DNA from: Minisyncoccota bacterium
Lineage (GTDB): Bacteria; Patescibacteriota; Minisyncoccia; UBA6257; 2-01-FULL-56-20
DNA length: 64,000 bases
Assembly: GCA_041664245.1 (NCBI GenBank)
Contig: JBAYLC010000004.1
Location: 16,932 to 80,931 of the forward strand
Direction of reading: 5' to 3'
Part shown: positions 1,081-46,641 of the stretch, piece by piece
Layout: each line of letters opens with the position of its first letter
Position numbering within the stretch: position 1 is the first letter of the stretch
Position numbers and translations under genes: made by a program
The notes under the pieces: model-generated
Seen by the model: only the letters and a program-made list of their open reading frames with translations
What the model was told of the DNA's origin: nothing
The model's database searches: none

Positions 1081-1632
1081 ATGTCTGGCAAGTTCAACTT
1101 AGTCATTGGCCTTGGTAATCCCGGCCCTGAATATAAAAAAACCTATCATAATATTGGCTTTCTTGCCACTGATTTTATTACCACTAAGTCCGGCTTCAAA
1201 AAATTCAGCAAAAGTTCGACTAAAAAATTTGAATTTTTAGAGGTTAAAAACACAATAATCTGCCGGCCCCTCACCTTTATGAATGACTCTGGCCAAGCTG
1301 TCGTCCTAATTTTGAAATATTTTAAAATAAAACCCGAAAATATTTTAGTTATTCACGATGATAGTGACTTAGAAATTGGAAAATACAAGCTTGTCTATGA
1401 TCGCGGTTCGGCCGGCCACAAAGGGATAATCTCCGTAATCAACCACCTCAAAACAAAAAAAATCTGGCGCCTCCGGATCGGAATTCGCCCAAAACCTAAT
1501 AATAACGACACAACTCCTCAAAAAAGAATAAAAGCGGAAAAATTTGTCCTTAAGGATATAAAGCCCACCGACCAAAAAATATTTGATCACATTTTCGGCG
1601 AAATTACCGAAAAAGTTATCGGGAATGAATAA
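1081..1632 (+). CDS. pth: Peptidyl-tRNA hydrolase
   Basis: LVIGLGNPGPEYKKTYHNIGF N-terminal signature and HDDSDLEIG motif typical of Pth. Confidence 0.9.
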   Translation: MSGKFNLVIGLGNPGPEYKKTYHNIGFLATDFITTKSGFKKFSKSSTKKFEFLEVKNTIICRPLTFMNDSGQAVVLILKYFKIKPENILVIHDDSDLEIGKYKLVYDRGSAGHKGIISVINHLKTKKIWRLRIGIRPKPNNNDTTPQKRIKAEKFVLKDIKPTDQKIFDHIFGEITEKVIGNE

Positions 1633-3104
1633 TCTCCATCAGGGTCCAATGTTATCTTGGTAAACTGAAAATCGACGCTTCCAAAAAAAGGGTCGGAGTT
1701 AAACACTTTTTCCAACTTCGCAGCATCTTCTCTTGTCTTTGATTCTCCGACAAGAGTAACTGGGGTATCAAAAGAGCTAAAACTAAATTTAGTTAAAACC
1801 GAATTATTAGTCACCAGTATACTATTAATTTTCTCAAACACTGCCGCCTTCGATAACTTCACGTCTCGAATTGGAGCGATTATATCTAAAGATTTATTAA
1901 AATCCTCGGCTTGTTGTTTTAAAAACTTAACCTCATTAAATTTCTGGCTATCACCATCACTAATTTTCGATTCCCGAATTAGATCATTATTTGTTTTAGT
2001 TAAAAAACCTATCGTCAAAGCGAAAACCAATAGCAACACCCCCATTGCGATTGGTGCCGCCGCAAGCCAAAATCTCAAAAAATTAAGAATCTGCCCTCGC
2101 CGATAATTATCTTCCGCCTCTACTCCCGAAAGATTTATTTCCCTATCATCTCGTCTGGAAGCAATTGATCTAATTCCGCCCCCCAAGGCCCCAAACCATT
2201 CCGAACTAACTGGCCGATCCAGTTTTAGTTCCAGATTTTTGACCCTTAGCGAAAAATTATCCTTAATTATTTTTGTAATCTCCTCTCCTAATCCAGGCGT
2301 TGCCAGAATAACATCCTCCACCGGCTCGCTCCAATGCTGTCCGTAAAAATTCAAAACTTGTCTTAAATTTCTAACCACGACTGTTCGAAATTCAGAAATT
2401 GAAATCTCTTTGCCTCCTCCTTTCAAATCTTGCCAAGAATTGAAATACTCAAAATACATTTGTCCCCGCTTTATAATAATAAAATCCAAACTTTCATTAT
2501 CCAAACTTAAGAGAATATAAGGCCGAAAACTATCTATTCCCAAAGATTGCTCACGGAAAATTCTTGTTAGCGAAAAAGATCTTGACTCAACCGCAATTAC
2601 TAAAAAACCGGCCTCTAGCAAGGCCTTGCTAAGTTCATCAACCATCGTTCGGCCAACAAACACCGAAAGAATATCAACTTTTTTGGCCGTTTCGTCGGTT
2701 CCAACCAGTTGCCACCCTGAATAATGCTCGCCAACCTGAGAAGGAGCTACCATTTGTAAATTAAGTTTAACCGCTTCCTTCAGGGCATGGCCCTCTAATT
2801 TCGGCAAACTGAAAATCTGAGTGTAAATATTAAGCGACCCCAACGAAACTACCACTAAAATCTTTTTTTGAGGCTGGTCTTTTTTAAAAATTTCCTTCTT
2901 TAATATAAAAAGGGACTCAACAAATTTATGATAATCCAAAATTACATTGGCCTTCATAATCCCCGGCGCCAATCTGATACTAGTCATCTGCCACTCCCGA
3001 TTATTTTTTAAATAAGCAAAACGCAAAGAAAAATCAGAAATCTCCAACCCGCCGATCATCGAGTTGCCCTTTAAAAAATTTAAAACTTTTCTCAAATATC
3101 TCAT
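1587..3104 (-). CDS. pilM: Type IV pilus assembly protein, PilM-like actin-fold domain fused to a C-terminal TM plus PilN-like region
   Basis: Roughly 500 aa with a TM segment (LAAAPIAMGVLLLVFALTIGF) two-thirds of the way in, followed by a PilN-like periplasmic segment. It sits at the head of the pilus locus. The ORF-track start at 3212 overlaps the upstream pilin gene; the Met at 3104 (MRYLRKV) avoids that overlap. Confidence 0.5.
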   Translation of the reverse strand: MRYLRKVLNFLKGNSMIGGLEISDFSLRFAYLKNNREWQMTSIRLAPGIMKANVILDYHKFVESLFILKKEIFKKDQPQKKILVVVSLGSLNIYTQIFSLPKLEGHALKEAVKLNLQMVAPSQVGEHYSGWQLVGTDETAKKVDILSVFVGRTMVDELSKALLEAGFLVIAVESRSFSLTRIFREQSLGIDSFRPYILLSLDNESLDFIIIKRGQMYFEYFNSWQDLKGGGKEISISEFRTVVVRNLRQVLNFYGQHWSEPVEDVILATPGLGEEITKIIKDNFSLRVKNLELKLDRPVSSEWFGALGGGIRSIASRRDDREINLSGVEAEDNYRRGQILNFLRFWLAAAPIAMGVLLLVFALTIGFLTKTNNDLIRESKISDGDSQKFNEVKFLKQQAEDFNKSLDIIAPIRDVKLSKAAVFEKINSILVTNNSVLTKFSFSSFDTPVTLVGESKTREDAAKLEKVFNSDPFFGSVDFQFTKITLDPDGDYSFPITFSVISPKM

Positions 3105-3141
3105 TTTAAAATTACTTTCACCTTTAAAATAACATAACTCC

Positions 3142-3675
3142 TTATAAGTGTATACAAGAACCCACGCACAAACACGTCCCAATAACTGGGTCGGAACACT
3201 CAGTTTTAACATCGCCTATCTTCAAACTAACCACCTCAACTTTGCTGCTATATTTATCCACCGACAACACCCCGAAGAGCACGTATGCTTTTCCGGCAAT
3301 TGTCGCCTCCGACCTGATCACAAACTGATTTTTATCAACAGAGTAATAATCATTAATACAAACTGGTGAGGTAGAAGTTGGCGGAGCAATTCGAATCTCA
3401 AGTGTCCCTTCGGTACTCAAATTGGGATTATACGTTGAAGCGCATCCTCCGTTACTCAACTCCTTGTTTCTATTTATCCTTAAAGCCGCATCCTGAACCC
3501 CCGCTAAAGCCAGCTGTGCCGCCTTATTAACATCCCGAGAACCGTAACTGGAATAAATAAAATTAAAAACTAAAAACGCCAAAGTAATTCCTACGATAAC
3601 GATCACTCCCCCAATCAAAAGTACCAACGACAACGCCGTTTGCCCGTTTTTTTGATTGAATTTATTAATCATCAT
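3142..3675 (-). CDS. Pilin-like or pseudopilin-like protein with a noncanonical leader
   Basis: N-terminus MMINKFNQKNGQTALSLVLLIGGVIVIVGITLAFLVF resembles a prepilin leader plus hydrophobic alpha1 helix, but lacks the Glu at +5. Cys-rich C-terminus. Confidence 0.4.
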   Translation of the reverse strand: MMINKFNQKNGQTALSLVLLIGGVIVIVGITLAFLVFNFIYSSYGSRDVNKAAQLALAGVQDAALRINRNKELSNGGCASTYNPNLSTEGTLEIRIAPPTSTSPVCINDYYSVDKNQFVIRSEATIAGKAYVLFGVLSVDKYSSKVEVVSLKIGDVKTECSDPVIGTCLCVGSCIHL

Positions 3676-3714
3676 TTTTTGCTTATTACAATGTACGTGC
3701 CCCGAGACGAGACA

Positions 3715-4743
3715 CTACGGACTCCAGTTCACCGTCACTTCATCAATTCTCGGCGTTAACGCCTGGTCTGGATCTGATTTCAATCTAACCAGATACTTAA
3801 AGTATCTCTTATTAGTGAAATCAGAAACGTTGTCAATCTTCACGCGGTATACTCCCGGCGAGTCAAAAACCGTAGCGTAAGAATTATAATAAGATGAAAT
3901 CGAGCCGTTCGGCCCCAAGAAAATCCACGGTCCGCTCGTTGAATTTGCCGCGGCTAGCTTAAAGCTCACACCAGTAGTAACTGGTAAATTTCCTTTCCAA
4001 ATAATCGAATTTATTTGAACCCCTTTAACTATGCCAGTATCAATAATAGCCGACTCCAGTGTTCCGTATGTTGAAGTTGCAAACCAATCCGTCGCCACTT
4101 TATAATCAGAGCCGTTTAATAAACACTCAGAGGGAGTGCCGCAACTGAAACTAATCCAGCCGGCAATATCATTCCAAGCGTAATTATAAAAATTCGATGG
4201 CGGTTCATCAATCCCAGTTGAAGAAGACGGGTATACGCCCACTCCCCAATAAACCGTAGTAGTTGCATGCTGAATTTCATTCCAAACCGTACTGCTTCCA
4301 GCAAAACTAATCCAACCGATTGCATCATTCCACGCCCAGCCAGAAACATGGCCCCGGCCATCATTTTTAACTCCCCAATTTCCAGCCGGACCAGTGCAAT
4401 TACTAGAACCCCCAGGCGGCAAAGTTGCGCAATTTAAAACAACTTCCCCAATTGAAGAACTCGCCCAGCCCTCTAAGTATTTTGAATGAACAATAACGTT
4501 ATGAGTACTATGAAAATCTATCCAGCCAATTGGACCGCTCCAACCCCAAGAATAATTTGAATTGGAATAAAGAGTGGAAGGGCTATAAAGAGAATTAACT
4601 GTTGGGTGAATATTGGTTCCCGGGTCTGGATTGGCCTTAGTAACCCTAAAACCGGTTACTAAAAAAACCGTCAAAATAACTCCGCCCAAAACAAAAACGC
4701 TGAATATTCCGACTGTTTTATTTCCTTTAAGATACTTTTTCAT
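3715..4743 (-). CDS. Membrane-anchored secreted protein with Trp-rich GWIxF repeats; candidate pilus tip or adhesin subunit
   Basis: N-terminal anchor MKKYLKGNKTVGIFSVFVLGGVILTVFLVTGF. Repeated motifs GWIDFHS, GWAWNDAIGWISFAGSS, YAWNDIAGWISFSCGT, GWSGPIGWIDF. Confidence 0.4.
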   Translation of the reverse strand: MKKYLKGNKTVGIFSVFVLGGVILTVFLVTGFRVTKANPDPGTNIHPTVNSLYSPSTLYSNSNYSWGWSGPIGWIDFHSTHNVIVHSKYLEGWASSSIGEVVLNCATLPPGGSSNCTGPAGNWGVKNDGRGHVSGWAWNDAIGWISFAGSSTVWNEIQHATTTVYWGVGVYPSSSTGIDEPPSNFYNYAWNDIAGWISFSCGTPSECLLNGSDYKVATDWFATSTYGTLESAIIDTGIVKGVQINSIIWKGNLPVTTGVSFKLAAANSTSGPWIFLGPNGSISSYYNSYATVFDSPGVYRVKIDNVSDFTNKRYFKYLVRLKSDPDQALTPRIDEVTVNWSP

Positions 4744-44273: not shown

Positions 44274-44987
44274 ATGGATTTTCAAATTTTCTTTGCCAAA
44301 AAACTAAAAGAGTCAGGGCTAACTCTTAAAAAACTCTCTGAACTCTCCGGCATCAGCCTTAAGCATCTCGAAAATATGAATTCGGGAAATTGGAACAATC
44401 TTCCGCCTGCTCCCTATCTCCGCGGCTATTTTTTAAAACTCGGGCAAATCCTAGAATTTAACGGCGAAGAACTCTGGGAATACTTTCAAAAAGAAACCGA
44501 AGTCTCCATCTCCGGCCCAAACGACACTTTACCAAAAAACCGATTCGTCAAAAAATCTTCTCTCAAAAAAATTTGGCTCGTCGTTATAGCGGTAATTATC
44601 TTAGGGTTTTTAGGTTATCGTCTTCCTAAAATTTTAGGCCGGCCGCAAGTCACCGTTTTTTCTCCGACCGATGAAACCACAATTATCACCAGCTCCACCT
44701 ACACTCTAAGCGGCAAAATTTTAAACGGCGACAAACTAACAATCTATCAAAACAGCGCCGATAACGGCGAAGTTGTCGGCTTGGCTAACGACGGCACCTG
44801 GCAAAAAGAAATTCTCCTTCAGCCCGGCCCCAATCAGATAAATATTATTGGCTCAAAATTCTTGGGCCGGCAAACCGAAGTTATTCGCCAGATTATCTTC
44901 GATGAACAAAAAGGAACTTCCAGTTTAAAAAATATCGATTCCCAATCATCTTCAACTATCACTTCTTCCACCCCCTCTTCAACTTAA
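44274..44987 (+). CDS. RodZ-like HTH membrane protein
   Basis: N-terminal HTH (LTLKKLSELSGISLKHLENMNSG), TM helix (IWLVVIAVIILGFLGY), Ser/Thr-rich C-terminus. Confidence 0.5.
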   Translation: MDFQIFFAKKLKESGLTLKKLSELSGISLKHLENMNSGNWNNLPPAPYLRGYFLKLGQILEFNGEELWEYFQKETEVSISGPNDTLPKNRFVKKSSLKKIWLVVIAVIILGFLGYRLPKILGRPQVTVFSPTDETTIITSSTYTLSGKILNGDKLTIYQNSADNGEVVGLANDGTWQKEILLQPGPNQINIIGSKFLGRQTEVIRQIIFDEQKGTSSLKNIDSQSSSTITSSTPSST

Positions 44988-45000
44988 AAAGTTATATCTA

Positions 45001-45037
45001 TTAAAATAAAAAGCCGGAAGTCCTTACAACCTCCGGC
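45001..45037 (-). terminator. Intrinsic terminator ending a minus-strand transcript from the 45.0-45.6 kb noncoding region
   Basis: Minus strand: GCCGGAGG-uuguaagga-CUUCCGGC (8 bp including one GU) followed by UUUUUAUUUUAA. No U-tract on the plus strand. Confidence 0.55.
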
Positions 45038-45591
45038 TCATCCTCCACCCTGGAGAGCGGTGAACTGTGCGAATCATCAACCATAAAACGTAAAGTTGCT
45101 CTCCATTATCCCCAAAAAGCCCTACGGTCCCGTAGTACCATCGCCCAAAGCTTTCCGCATCTTCATCCTCCCTCTCCCGGGTATCGTGGCCGATTCGGTT
45201 CTGCTGGATCAAATAATTTCTGCATCATCAACCTCCATCGGACGGTTGTAGTAAAATCAACCTCCGCCTATCAGGATCGCCAATGTCCACTTGACTACCC
45301 CCTGCATAAATATCGAGGCTGTTCATTTCTTCCGTAATTACCTCCCATAGGAAATTTAACCACGATTATTCACCAGAGAATTTTGTAATTCCCCGAAAAG
45401 TTCTCTCATGATCACCCCCTTCAATCGCTTTCAGTAAGGTCAAGCTCCCGGCAACAACCTAGTGGAATGATCACAATTACTCTCATTACCTTATCACCTC
45501 CTTTATAAGAACCTCACTTGCCAAAATCAAGTTACTACTTTCAAATTATCATAAATTTGCCCCAATTTCAAAACTTCCCTAAAATTAACCT

Positions 45592-46641
45592 ATGCCAAAA
45601 AAACAAGCTAAGGACGAAAAAAACCAAAATAAAAATCAACTCGAAGGGCTTCTCGCTTCGCTCCGCGAAAAATTCGGCGATGGCGCAGTTATGATGCTCG
45701 GCGACGCCAGAAAAGTAGACGTGGCCGTCATCCCCACCGGCTCCTTCTCTCTCGATATTGCTCTCGGTGTTGGCGGTCTCCCTCGCGGCCGGATTGTGGA
45801 AATATTCGGCCCCGAAGGCAGCGGCAAAACCACCCTTGCCCTTAACGTTGTTGCTCAAGCCCAAAAACAAGGCGGTAAAGCCGCCTTCATTGACGCCGAG
45901 CATGCTCTTGATCCCGAATACGCCTCCCGGCTCGGCGTAAAAATAAACGACCTCCTTATCTCTCAGCCAGATAACGGCGAGGAAGCGCTGAACATCTTAG
46001 ACTCTCTTGTCCGCTCTGATATGATTTCGGTAATTGTCGTTGATTCGGTGGCCGCTCTCACTCCCAAAGCCGAAATTGAAGGCGAAATGGGTGCCCAATT
46101 CATCGGTCTCCAGGCGCGGATGATGTCTCAAGCGCTCCGCAAATTAACCGCTATCTCTGCTAAATCCCAAACCCTAATTATTTTCATCAACCAAATCCGA
46201 ATGCAAATCGGCATGATGTTCGGCAATCCCGAAACCACTCCCGGCGGCCGAGCGCTTAAATTTTACGCTTCGGTTCGCATCGACGTTCGCCGCATCGCTC
46301 AAGTCAAAAAAGGCGAAGACATCGTCGGCTCGCGCGTAAAAGCCAAGGTGGTCAAAAACAAAGTCGCCGCACCGTTTAAACTGGCTGAATTTGATATTAT
46401 GTTTGGCACCGGCATTTCTTATGAAGCCGATGTTTTAAATGCCGCCATCAAACACGGCGTCGTCAAAAAATCCGGCGCCAGTTATAGTTTTGAAAATGAA
46501 CGACTCGGCACCGGCTTCGACAATATTCGCGAAAAACTAAAGGGTGATAAAAAACTCCTCAAAGAAATTGAGAAGAAAGTTGAATCCGTACTTAAAAATA
46601 AAATCATCATAGAAGAACCCGCCGCCGAAACCCCCGCCTAA
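45592..46641 (+). CDS. recA: Recombinase RecA
   Basis: [12 protein letters not shown] Walker [13 protein letters not shown]1/L2 loop context, C-terminal acidic tail. Confidence 0.95.

Follow-up and report, generated by a model that had tools for sequence, protein, structure and literature searches.

The window analysed here is a 64,000-nucleotide stretch of a Minisyncoccota bacterium genome (contig JBAYLC010000004.1, positions 16,932 to 80,931) in which a rodZ-like gene (HTH_25; 44274..44987) and recA (45592..46641), both on the plus strand, are separated by a spacer of 604 bp (44988..45591). This is the biggest gap in the window, where most gaps are shorter than 100 bp, as an earlier note on this DNA had remarked. 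The same note had described about 560 bp of the spacer as poor in open reading frames (ORFs), and this description holds: the plus strand carries no ORF of at least 60 amino acids (aa), and the minus strand carries one, of 62 aa (45024..45212). The accompanying proposals, that the region is a large structured noncoding RNA or else a long 5' leader of recA, fared less well, and the spacer is probably neither. Its minus strand instead carries a series of mini-ORFs (ORF1 to ORF5; Table 1), bounded by a promoter-like site and a terminator.

Short reading frames on the minus strand and their boundaries

The mini-ORFs are accompanied by an unusual density of Shine-Dalgarno (SD) sequences. Seven GGAGG motifs lie on the minus strand of the spacer, compared with 2.2 in dinucleotide shuffles (8 of 2000 shuffles were as high), and five modules of an SD plus ATG open ORFs of at least 10 codons, compared with 0.66 expected (17 of 2000 as high). 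All five SD modules are conserved in the corresponding spacers of two diverged close relatives, L086 (588 bp; 3715..4302) and L093 (657 bp; 1411..2067), referred to below, together with the window, as the three close genomes. Such modules are unusual here because no ordinary gene of the window has an SD of this kind: GGAGG or AGGAG is found at positions -20 to -4 in 0 of the 51 long ORFs.

Several of the mini-ORFs adjoin one another directly. The stop codon of ORF3 and the start codon of ORF4 overlap as UGAUG, the ATG of ORF5 lies 2 nt past the ORF4 stop, and this same stop overlaps an upstream ATG of ORF5 as AUGA. A recurring GGAGGWTGAWGATGC motif and peptides that end in '-GG' before the stop are seen because the final codons of the upstream ORFs contain GGAGG. 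The junctions resemble those of coupled operons, such as the trp and ribosomal-protein operons, in their UGAUG and AUGA overlaps, in the placement of GGAGG within the last codons of the upstream cistron, and in the stop-to-ATG gaps of 1–2 nt, which are kept in two more distant relatives, L102 and L177. Unlike those operons, the unit has cistrons of 12–32 codons rather than full-length ones and resides in a host that otherwise lacks SD-led initiation.

Frame-breaking indels among the three close genomes lie outside ORF1, the first 10 codons of ORF3, ORF4 and ORF5. Neither the length of ORF1 nor the place of its stop codon differs in L086 and L093 (stops TGA, TGA and TAA), and ORF1 forms the most conserved block, with about 7.5% divergence compared with 21–26% at fourfold sites. 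The first ten codons of ORF3 (MNS[LF]DIYAGG) are also conserved, and five codons in a row differ at their third positions (GAT/GAC, ATT/ATC, GCA/GCC/GCT, GGG/GGA and GGT/GGG/GGA). The ORF5 peptide of L086 is identical, its gene differing by two synonymous changes and by a TAA rather than a TAG stop, and that of L093 is conservatively changed (MRKALGEGGSGPS); changes in ORF5 and in the start of ORF3 fall almost only at third codon positions. SD2 is kept in all three close genomes, and ORF2 itself is probably not a conserved gene. The segment 45239..45268 of ORF3 is a window-specific insertion that duplicates GGAGGTTGAT.

Counterparts of some of these elements are present in the more distant relatives. 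An SD-led hydrophobic ORF (MHVLFLSLSI, then stop) is the L177 analogue of ORF1, and its similarity to ORF1 is not significant. A coupled ATG ORF begins at most 1 nt past the ORF4 counterpart in L177 (MEKILYPDEL, then stop; junction TGAGATG) and in L102 (junction TAGTATG). With hidden Markov models (HMMs) of ORF1 and ORF5, no homolog was significant beyond the species group. A type I toxin-antitoxin system was considered and rejected: ORF1 offers only about 12 hydrophobic residues (MRVIVIIPLGCC) compared with the approximately 18 or more needed, ORF3, ORF4 and ORF5 are hydrophilic, and a scan found no plus-strand promoter or terminator inside the spacer.

The recA-proximal boundary of the unit is a promoter-like site, TTGAAA-17-TGATAATTT (45571..45543), that is kept in the three close genomes. 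Its candidate -35 box, TTGAAA in the window, is the same in L093 and becomes TTGAAT in L086, and L177 has a counterpart (TTGAAA-16-TATTAT with TG ahead). The promoter scan missed this site because its -10 hexamer matches at just three of six positions. Transcription of the minus strand is predicted to start near 45536. At the opposite boundary, a GC-rich hairpin with a 12-bp stem (45039..45011; dG -20.1 kcal/mol, z = -5.3) is directly followed on the minus strand by a U-run (TTTTTATTTT), the arrangement that defines Rho-independent terminators, and it is specific for the minus strand because of the G-U pairs in its stem. The hairpin is kept in L093 by way of two compensatory pairs (A-U to G-C and G-C to A-U), and six further lineages, L102, L177, L088, L105 and L089 among them, have an equivalent minus-strand terminator where the spacer adjoins rodZ. 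The earlier note had read this hairpin as one that terminates only a minus-strand transcript; the stem, its stability and its compensation in L093 bear this out, and the compensation and the six counterparts also back the separate minus-strand transcript that such a terminator implies.

We hold with moderate confidence that the spacer is its own small transcription unit, read from the minus strand and predicted to encode a chain of mini-genes of 12–32 codons, whatever their function. The best reading of this unit is that of a lineage-specific small-ORF operon in a hypervariable slot between rodZ and recA. Small-ORF and dual-function RNAs are represented by RNAIII/hld of Staphylococcus, SR1/SR1P of Bacillus subtilis and SgrS/SgrT of Escherichia coli. 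The unit is like these examples in its size (about 0.5 kb), in its lack of a long ORF and in its short ORFs with their own ribosome-binding sites, which are here predicted from sequence. It is unlike them in that sequence or structural homology is lacking and in that its cistrons are chained by stop/start overlap.

Table 1. Positions of the features discussed. Window coordinates unless a relative is named; peptides are given up to their stop codons.
Feature	Sequence	Position	Strand	Remark
Candidate -35 box	TTGAAA	45566..45571	-	putative; read from sequence
Candidate extended -10 box	TGATAATTT	45543..45551	-	same in window, L086 and L093
SD1 and ORF1	SD1 AAGGAGGTGAT (45493..45503); ORF1 MRVIVIIPLGCCRELDLTESD (45486..45421)	45421..45503	-	
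SD2 and ORF2	SD2 AGGGGGTGATC (45410..45420); ORF2 MRELFGELQNSLVNNRG (45409..45356)	45356..45420	-	
SD3 and ORF3	SD3 GGGAGGTAA (45338..45346); ORF3 MNSLDIYAGGSQVDIGDPDRRRLILLQPSDGG (45326..45228)	45228..45346	-	
ORF4, 21 aa	MMQKLFDPAEPNRPRYPGEGG	45163..45228	-	GGAGG ahead at 45232..45236; best-supported coding element
SD5 and ORF5	SD5 GGGAGGATGA (within ORF4 end); ORF5 MRKALGDGTTGP (45160..45122)	45122..45172	-	
3' untranslated region (UTR) hairpin	TGGAGAGC (45098..45105) pairs with GCTCTCCA (45051..45058)	45051..45105	-	RNAalifold helix 20
Intrinsic terminator	stem GAGCCGGAGGTT/GACTTCCGGCTT, then U-run	45003..45039	-	terminator scan
recA promoter-like site	TTGCCC-17-TAAAAT	45557..45585	+	promoter scan; ends 6 nt ahead of ATG at 45592
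Palindrome	CAAATT-ATCATA-AATTTG	45542..45559		between/over the two divergent promoters
LFTM gene	96–129 aa	L089 3972..4328; L092 3758..4099; L088 ~4373..4618	-	unannotated
Gly/Asp repeat mini-ORFs	e.g. MACFKRGDDGGGGYWRGDDGCFRRGDDGETGGYWRDPTSGG, ...GGYWRDPSDGD, ...FWVRGDEGDG...	L089 ~3780..3905; L101, L088, L115 and L105 spacers	- (L089)	

Peptide-level conservation of ORF4

The start, frame and stop of ORF4 are kept in L086 (MMRKKLFDPEEPSRPRHSEGQGG) and L093 (MITRRLLDPEEPSRPRHPEVGG), with TGA, TGA and TAA as the three stops, and indels within it are of 3 bp only, despite the near-neutral divergence of this block. Ratios of synonymous to nonsynonymous changes are 4:5 and 4:7 in frame, compared with 1–2:7–12 in the other frames. 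Two lineages with rodZ proteins of only about 50% identity, L102 (MKRCWDPEEPFRPCGPEDGE) and L177 (MKKILDPTEPRRLFDKDGASPCRAKRCLEPGNGG, with MKKILDPTEPRRLF...GG before the stop), have homologs of ORF4 at this same position and on the minus strand. Both homologs are ATG-initiated; AAGGAG/GGGGG lies ahead of the ATG in L102, and in L177 an SD-led ORF of 6 codons ends in a stop that overlaps the ATG as ATGA.

The core of the family can be written [KR][KR][LI][FLW]-D-P-x-E-P-x-R. Two independent lineages carry the cores KRCWDPEEPFRP and KKILDPTEPRR with synonymous codon changes, and across the family proline is encoded by CCA, CCG or CCC, glutamate by GAA or GAG and arginine by CGG, CGA or AGA, the third position being the most variable. 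When an HMM was trained on the three close genomes alone, L102 was its top non-self match (E = 0.004) among 48,557 six-frame segments, and the pattern DP.EP.RP has no other occurrence in a six-frame reading of 1.04 Mb. A conserved frame, start and stop, indels of 3 bp and an excess of third-position change, as expected of a protein-coding sequence, were thus found for ORF4, which is best explained as the putative founder of a new micro-peptide family. Two likenesses, one to QKLF, a β-clamp-binding motif, and one to LDIxA of the FtsZ C-terminal peptide, were dropped, as the key residues are not conserved among the homologs.

A number of observations weigh against interpreting the spacer as a coding unit. 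Gene callers predict nothing in it, and the mini-peptides are short, hydrophilic and without a recognisable domain. ORF1, the best-conserved block, shows no synonymous excess (synonymous to nonsynonymous 1:4 and 2:4). The start codon of ORF2 is ATA in L093, and indels of 1–2 bp fall within this ORF, while ORF3 past codon 10 is frame-shifted in L086 and truncated right after GG in L093. The GGAGG motifs might have a different role, given that SDs are otherwise unused in this genome. The support for ORF4 comprises five sequences from three lineages, of which the L177 match is marginal when taken alone (E = 0.31, ranked third with the ORF4 HMM). Moreover, the in-register antisense frame of ORF4 is about equally conserved in amino-acid identity. 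This frame has no start codon in the window, and most changes would fall at its first codon position; no ORF of at least 30 aa is listed in the antisense frame of L102 or L177. Plus-strand ORFs antisense to ORF4 were rejected as candidates, being poorly conserved or not open in these two relatives.

RNA structure and the recA side of the spacer

Some of the same observations suit a different interpretation, in which the minus-strand transcript acts as an RNA and the mini-ORFs are incidental or secondary (a dual-function RNA). Such an RNA would be a structured regulator or a decoy, whose repeated GGAGG(U/A)UGA sites could bind the anti-SD of 16S rRNA, 30S subunits or an RNA-binding protein. The transcript would be G-rich with many G-U pairs, its 5' block (5' UTR plus ORF1) is conserved in nucleotide sequence without a coding signature, and SD2 is conserved even in L093, where the ORF2 start codon is lost. 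SD-like sites are also anomalous in a genome that lacks them elsewhere. We nevertheless regard this as an unlikely, though not far-fetched, account of the spacer, for the reasons that follow.

Rfam covariance models found only five tRNAs in the window; with the cutoff relaxed to E<=10, the region 44900..45700 remained without a match, and 12 sister loci gave no match either. RNase P, 6S, transfer-messenger RNA, signal recognition particle RNA, ROOL, GOLLD, OLE, raiA, HEARO and CsrB/Rsm were all covered by this check, which the earlier note had called for, and none of them reached its gathering score. Folding of the whole region beats shuffles only modestly on either strand (z = -2.6 for minus and -2.2 for plus), although the minus-strand value counts in favour of an RNA role. 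An RNAalifold structure of the three close genomes has 165 pairs with 6 double-sided changes compared with 3.5 in shuffles (34 of 500 as high), a value that is barely above background and comes from a structure derived from the same three-genome alignment used for its scoring; the proportion of cells that are paired is 95.9% compared with 95.2% in shuffles. Clean compensation was seen in the terminator only. Given the missing Rfam match, the weak covariation and a spacer that outside ORF4 cannot be aligned beyond the species group, the proposal of a large structured RNA finds no support. In addition, conservation across lineages is limited to a single element, whose peptide is retained through synonymous codon turnover, whereas its nucleotide sequence and structure are not.

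Two individual hairpins are predicted in all three close genomes. In helix 8, the codons of ORF1 pair with the SD2 region to form a long hairpin of 15 pairs, with one compensatory change and one break. The 3'-UTR hairpin (helix 20), which is weakly supported, has 10 pairs, one of them with a double-sided change; three changes preserve wobble pairing, and L093 breaks two pairs. These hairpins are compatible with a role for the RNA itself. A perfect hairpin pointed out previously, formed by CTACGG and its complement, does exist, but it sits at 45122..45135 rather than 45127..45140, lies inside ORF5 and is lost in L093.

A protein-sequestering sponge of the CsrB/Rsm type was considered specifically. 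Like CsrB, RsmY and RsmZ, the minus-strand RNA would be several hundred nucleotides long, with many GGA/GGAGG motifs and a Rho-independent terminator. Unlike in those RNAs, the motifs are not concentrated in loops: their unpaired probability is 0.34–0.39 compared with 0.37–0.40 overall. They are also placed at SD distance from an ATG, and no Rfam CsrB/Rsm match was obtained. This candidate was rejected.

The base composition that had been cited for a folded RNA is not particular to the spacer. Its plus strand is indeed C-rich, with a skew of about -0.36, but the plus strand of the whole window has 16324 C compared with 10618 G, a strong, uniform skew of about -0.21 that stems from the location of most genes on the minus strand. 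The minus strand of the window holds 107 copies of GGAGG and the plus strand 7, and the total of 114 compares with a dinucleotide expectation of 118.

The spacer could alternatively form a long structured 5' leader of recA, transcribed from the plus strand. It lies immediately upstream of recA, which, as had been observed, has no obvious SD. The absence is real but is no peculiarity of recA, and it is unremarkable because SD absence is the rule in this genome. The -10 box of the recA promoter-like site lies 6 nt from the ATG, and a -10-like hexamer (TAnAAT or TACAAT) lies 6–9 nt ahead of the recA ATG in about 15 relatives; recA therefore looks leaderless, and the spacer is probably not its leader. 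Furthermore, rodZ and recA are nearly adjacent in many relatives (20–150 bp), and in relatives having the same recA the spacer is absent or unrelated, contrary to what a leader or riboswitch would show. Plus-strand folding is no better than that of the minus strand, the spacer offers no plus-strand signals, and the terminator hairpin would function on the minus strand only. We consider a recA leader scarcely credible.

Many genes of the window have a TATAAT-like hexamer 5–9 nt ahead of the start codon, and SD-less starts can be seen, for example, at 1081, 12443, 18254, 38063, 47664, 56835 and 62695. This layout suggests that leaderless mRNAs, or mRNAs with very short leaders, are widespread in the genome, and the recA mRNA appears to be among those that are leaderless.

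The palindrome CAAATT-N6-AATTTG overlaps both the extended -10 box of the minus-strand unit and the recA -35 box, of which it covers the first three bases, and neither arm varies among the three close genomes. It occurs once in the window and is not significant alone because 1.2 copies are expected by chance. A role as a shared operator of recA and the minus-strand unit is possible but speculative.

A variable slot between rodZ and recA

The organism belongs to the Paceibacteria, within the candidate phyla radiation (CPR). The order ftsK-rodZ-recA is widespread among relatives, with rodZ-recA spacers as short as about 20 bp and as long as 1.5 kb. Three samples contain identical copies of the window, and contigs of the same organism (L081–L085) are 100% identical and so uninformative. 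Flanking genes of L086 and L093 have diverged by 0.21–0.26 at fourfold sites. Between the window and L086, the spacer differs by 13.7% substitutions and 8 indels, compared with 24–26% at fourfold sites, and is constrained to judge from a substitution level about half the fourfold-site rate. Blocks with 0–7.5% divergence alternate with near-neutral blocks. The three spacers also form a mosaic: over the first 60 nt the window equals L093, whereas over the last ~95 nt it nearly equals L086 and L093 is about 40% different. L093 carries an insertion of 80 nt, and contigs L087, L178, L179 and L180 end 60–160 nt past rodZ. These patterns suggest that the slot is a recombining, hypervariable or strain-variable hotspot.

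Homology searches at the DNA level yielded little. No significant match was found beyond the species group when a three-spacer nhmmer profile and blastn with the spacers were run on all relatives. A repeat search revealed no other copy of the spacer in the window, blastn with the spacer returned only chance matches of 27–42 nt in phage and plasmid collections, and no long six-frame piece of the spacer matched Pfam.

Such a history invites the view that the spacer is mostly non-functional, fast-turnover DNA, a remnant of accessory small genes whose ORFs survive by chance or have recently died. Lineages differ radically at this position (148 to 1,538 bp, with or without LFTM or Gly/Asp-rich ORFs, described below), and the blocks 45321..45263, 45205..45176 and 45119..45092 diverge approximately neutrally. 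At least 8 indels, a 24-nt window-specific duplication, the L093 insertion, the mosaic and the four contigs that break just past rodZ fit the same view. On the other hand, mean substitution is about half the fourfold-site rate, with blocks of 60–120 nt at 0–7.5% divergence; five SD-plus-start modules, a promoter-like site and a terminator have been maintained; and ORF4 persists across lineages with rodZ proteins about 50% identical. There is also no remnant in the window of the near-invariant LFTM protein. Decay alone is, in our judgement, a rather unlikely explanation.

The LFTM protein is a small protein encoded on the minus strand in the same slot of L088, L089, L092, L101 and L115, and no occurrence was found outside Patescibacteria. 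Its N-terminus is Lys-rich and disordered, and its C-terminus of 45 aa (IPDGLPKKYFFKSTFNTHDIMHSPVEKTINMIDKILSGERLFTM) is near-invariant, with the terminal motif ...KSTFNTHDIMHSPVEKTINMIDKILSGERLFTM. It has no match in Pfam, NCBIfam or PDB, and AlphaFold2 predicts a mostly disordered chain with one C-terminal helix (pLDDT, the predicted local distance difference test, 56). The gene is clearly one that codes for protein, and a GGAGG-type SD precedes it in 4 of 5 cases, which indicates that SD-led translation operates in this clade for genes of the slot. The unit in the window resembles the LFTM gene in its position and strand, its SD-led start and its minus-strand terminator beside rodZ, and differs from it in that an unrelated ORF1 is found in place of any LFTM homolog or remnant. 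A by-eye likeness that would make the spacer an LFTM pseudogene was rejected because the window holds no trace of this protein: tblastn and the family HMM, applied to the spacer and the six-frame window, gave best E values of about 0.5–3, and local DNA alignments were weak and mutually inconsistent.

SD-led mini-ORFs with Gly/Asp/aromatic repeats, often 3' of the LFTM gene, are a second kind of occupant (for example ...GGYWRDPTSGG before the stop). Amino acids are kept among their repeats while third codon positions vary. These mini-ORFs and the ORF4 family have an aromatic-(R)-D-P motif in common. The Drosophila tarsal-less/pri mRNA encodes several peptides of about 11 aa with a common LDPTGxY motif, and the peptides of this clade are similar in sharing an aromatic-Asp-Pro motif (FDPAEP, FFDPTKGE, WDPEEP and YWRDPTSGG).

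Elsewhere in the window, the runner-up apparent gap (3213..3714) is occupied by an ORF of 177 aa (3142..3675, minus strand), which has a hydrophobic N-terminal segment and looks pilin-like by eye. It overlaps the annotated start of a 541-aa ORF (1587..3212) by about 70 nt, and this 541-aa gene may in reality start further downstream than annotated.

How the unit may work and what it would mean

We infer transcription, translation, coupling and peptide function of the minus-strand unit from its sequence, and the small-ORF operon can be pictured as follows. The extended -10 promoter would begin a transcript of about 530 nt (from ~45536 to 45003), divergent from the leaderless recA, and the intrinsic terminator beside the rodZ stop codon would end it. 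The product would be a polycistronic mRNA for very small proteins, on which ribosomes would load at near-perfect SD sites that ordinary genes lack. Overlapping or abutting stop and start codons would then relay ribosomes from ORF3 to ORF4 and on to ORF5, yielding at least the proline-rich, acidic ORF4 peptide of 21 aa and an ORF5 peptide of 12 aa. A role in cis is possible for ORF1, ORF2 and the 5' block, and the hairpin between the ORF1 codons and SD2 could tie downstream translation to translation of ORF1.

A more specific function is a long shot. In a bacterium with mostly SD-less or leaderless mRNAs, the RNA, with five to seven near-perfect SD sites that each lead into a tiny ORF, might be a translation-dependent decoy or sensor that engages the ribosome or its anti-SD and shares a divergent control region with recA, or the DPxEP peptides of ORF4 might be trans-acting regulators of DNA damage responses or cell division, an idea prompted by the ftsK-rodZ-[unit]-recA context. 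If either were true, it would represent a new regulatory module, in a recombining hotspot, that is specific to the CPR. A literature search for such units in CPR bacteria found none.

CPR/Patescibacteria have tiny genomes, in which each retained element is likely to matter. If the small-ORF operon is real, annotation pipelines overlook a conserved micro-protein operon with products of 12–32 aa, below the limits of gene callers, and a terminator in a long, G-rich, 'ORF-free' spacer does not necessarily mark a noncoding RNA. The rodZ-recA junction would merit flagging as a hypervariable, recombining slot for small genes. One genome would also combine contrasting starts, SD-less or leaderless for ordinary genes and perfect SDs for accessory mini-genes, and this contrast could be used to study how CPR ribosomes choose their start sites.

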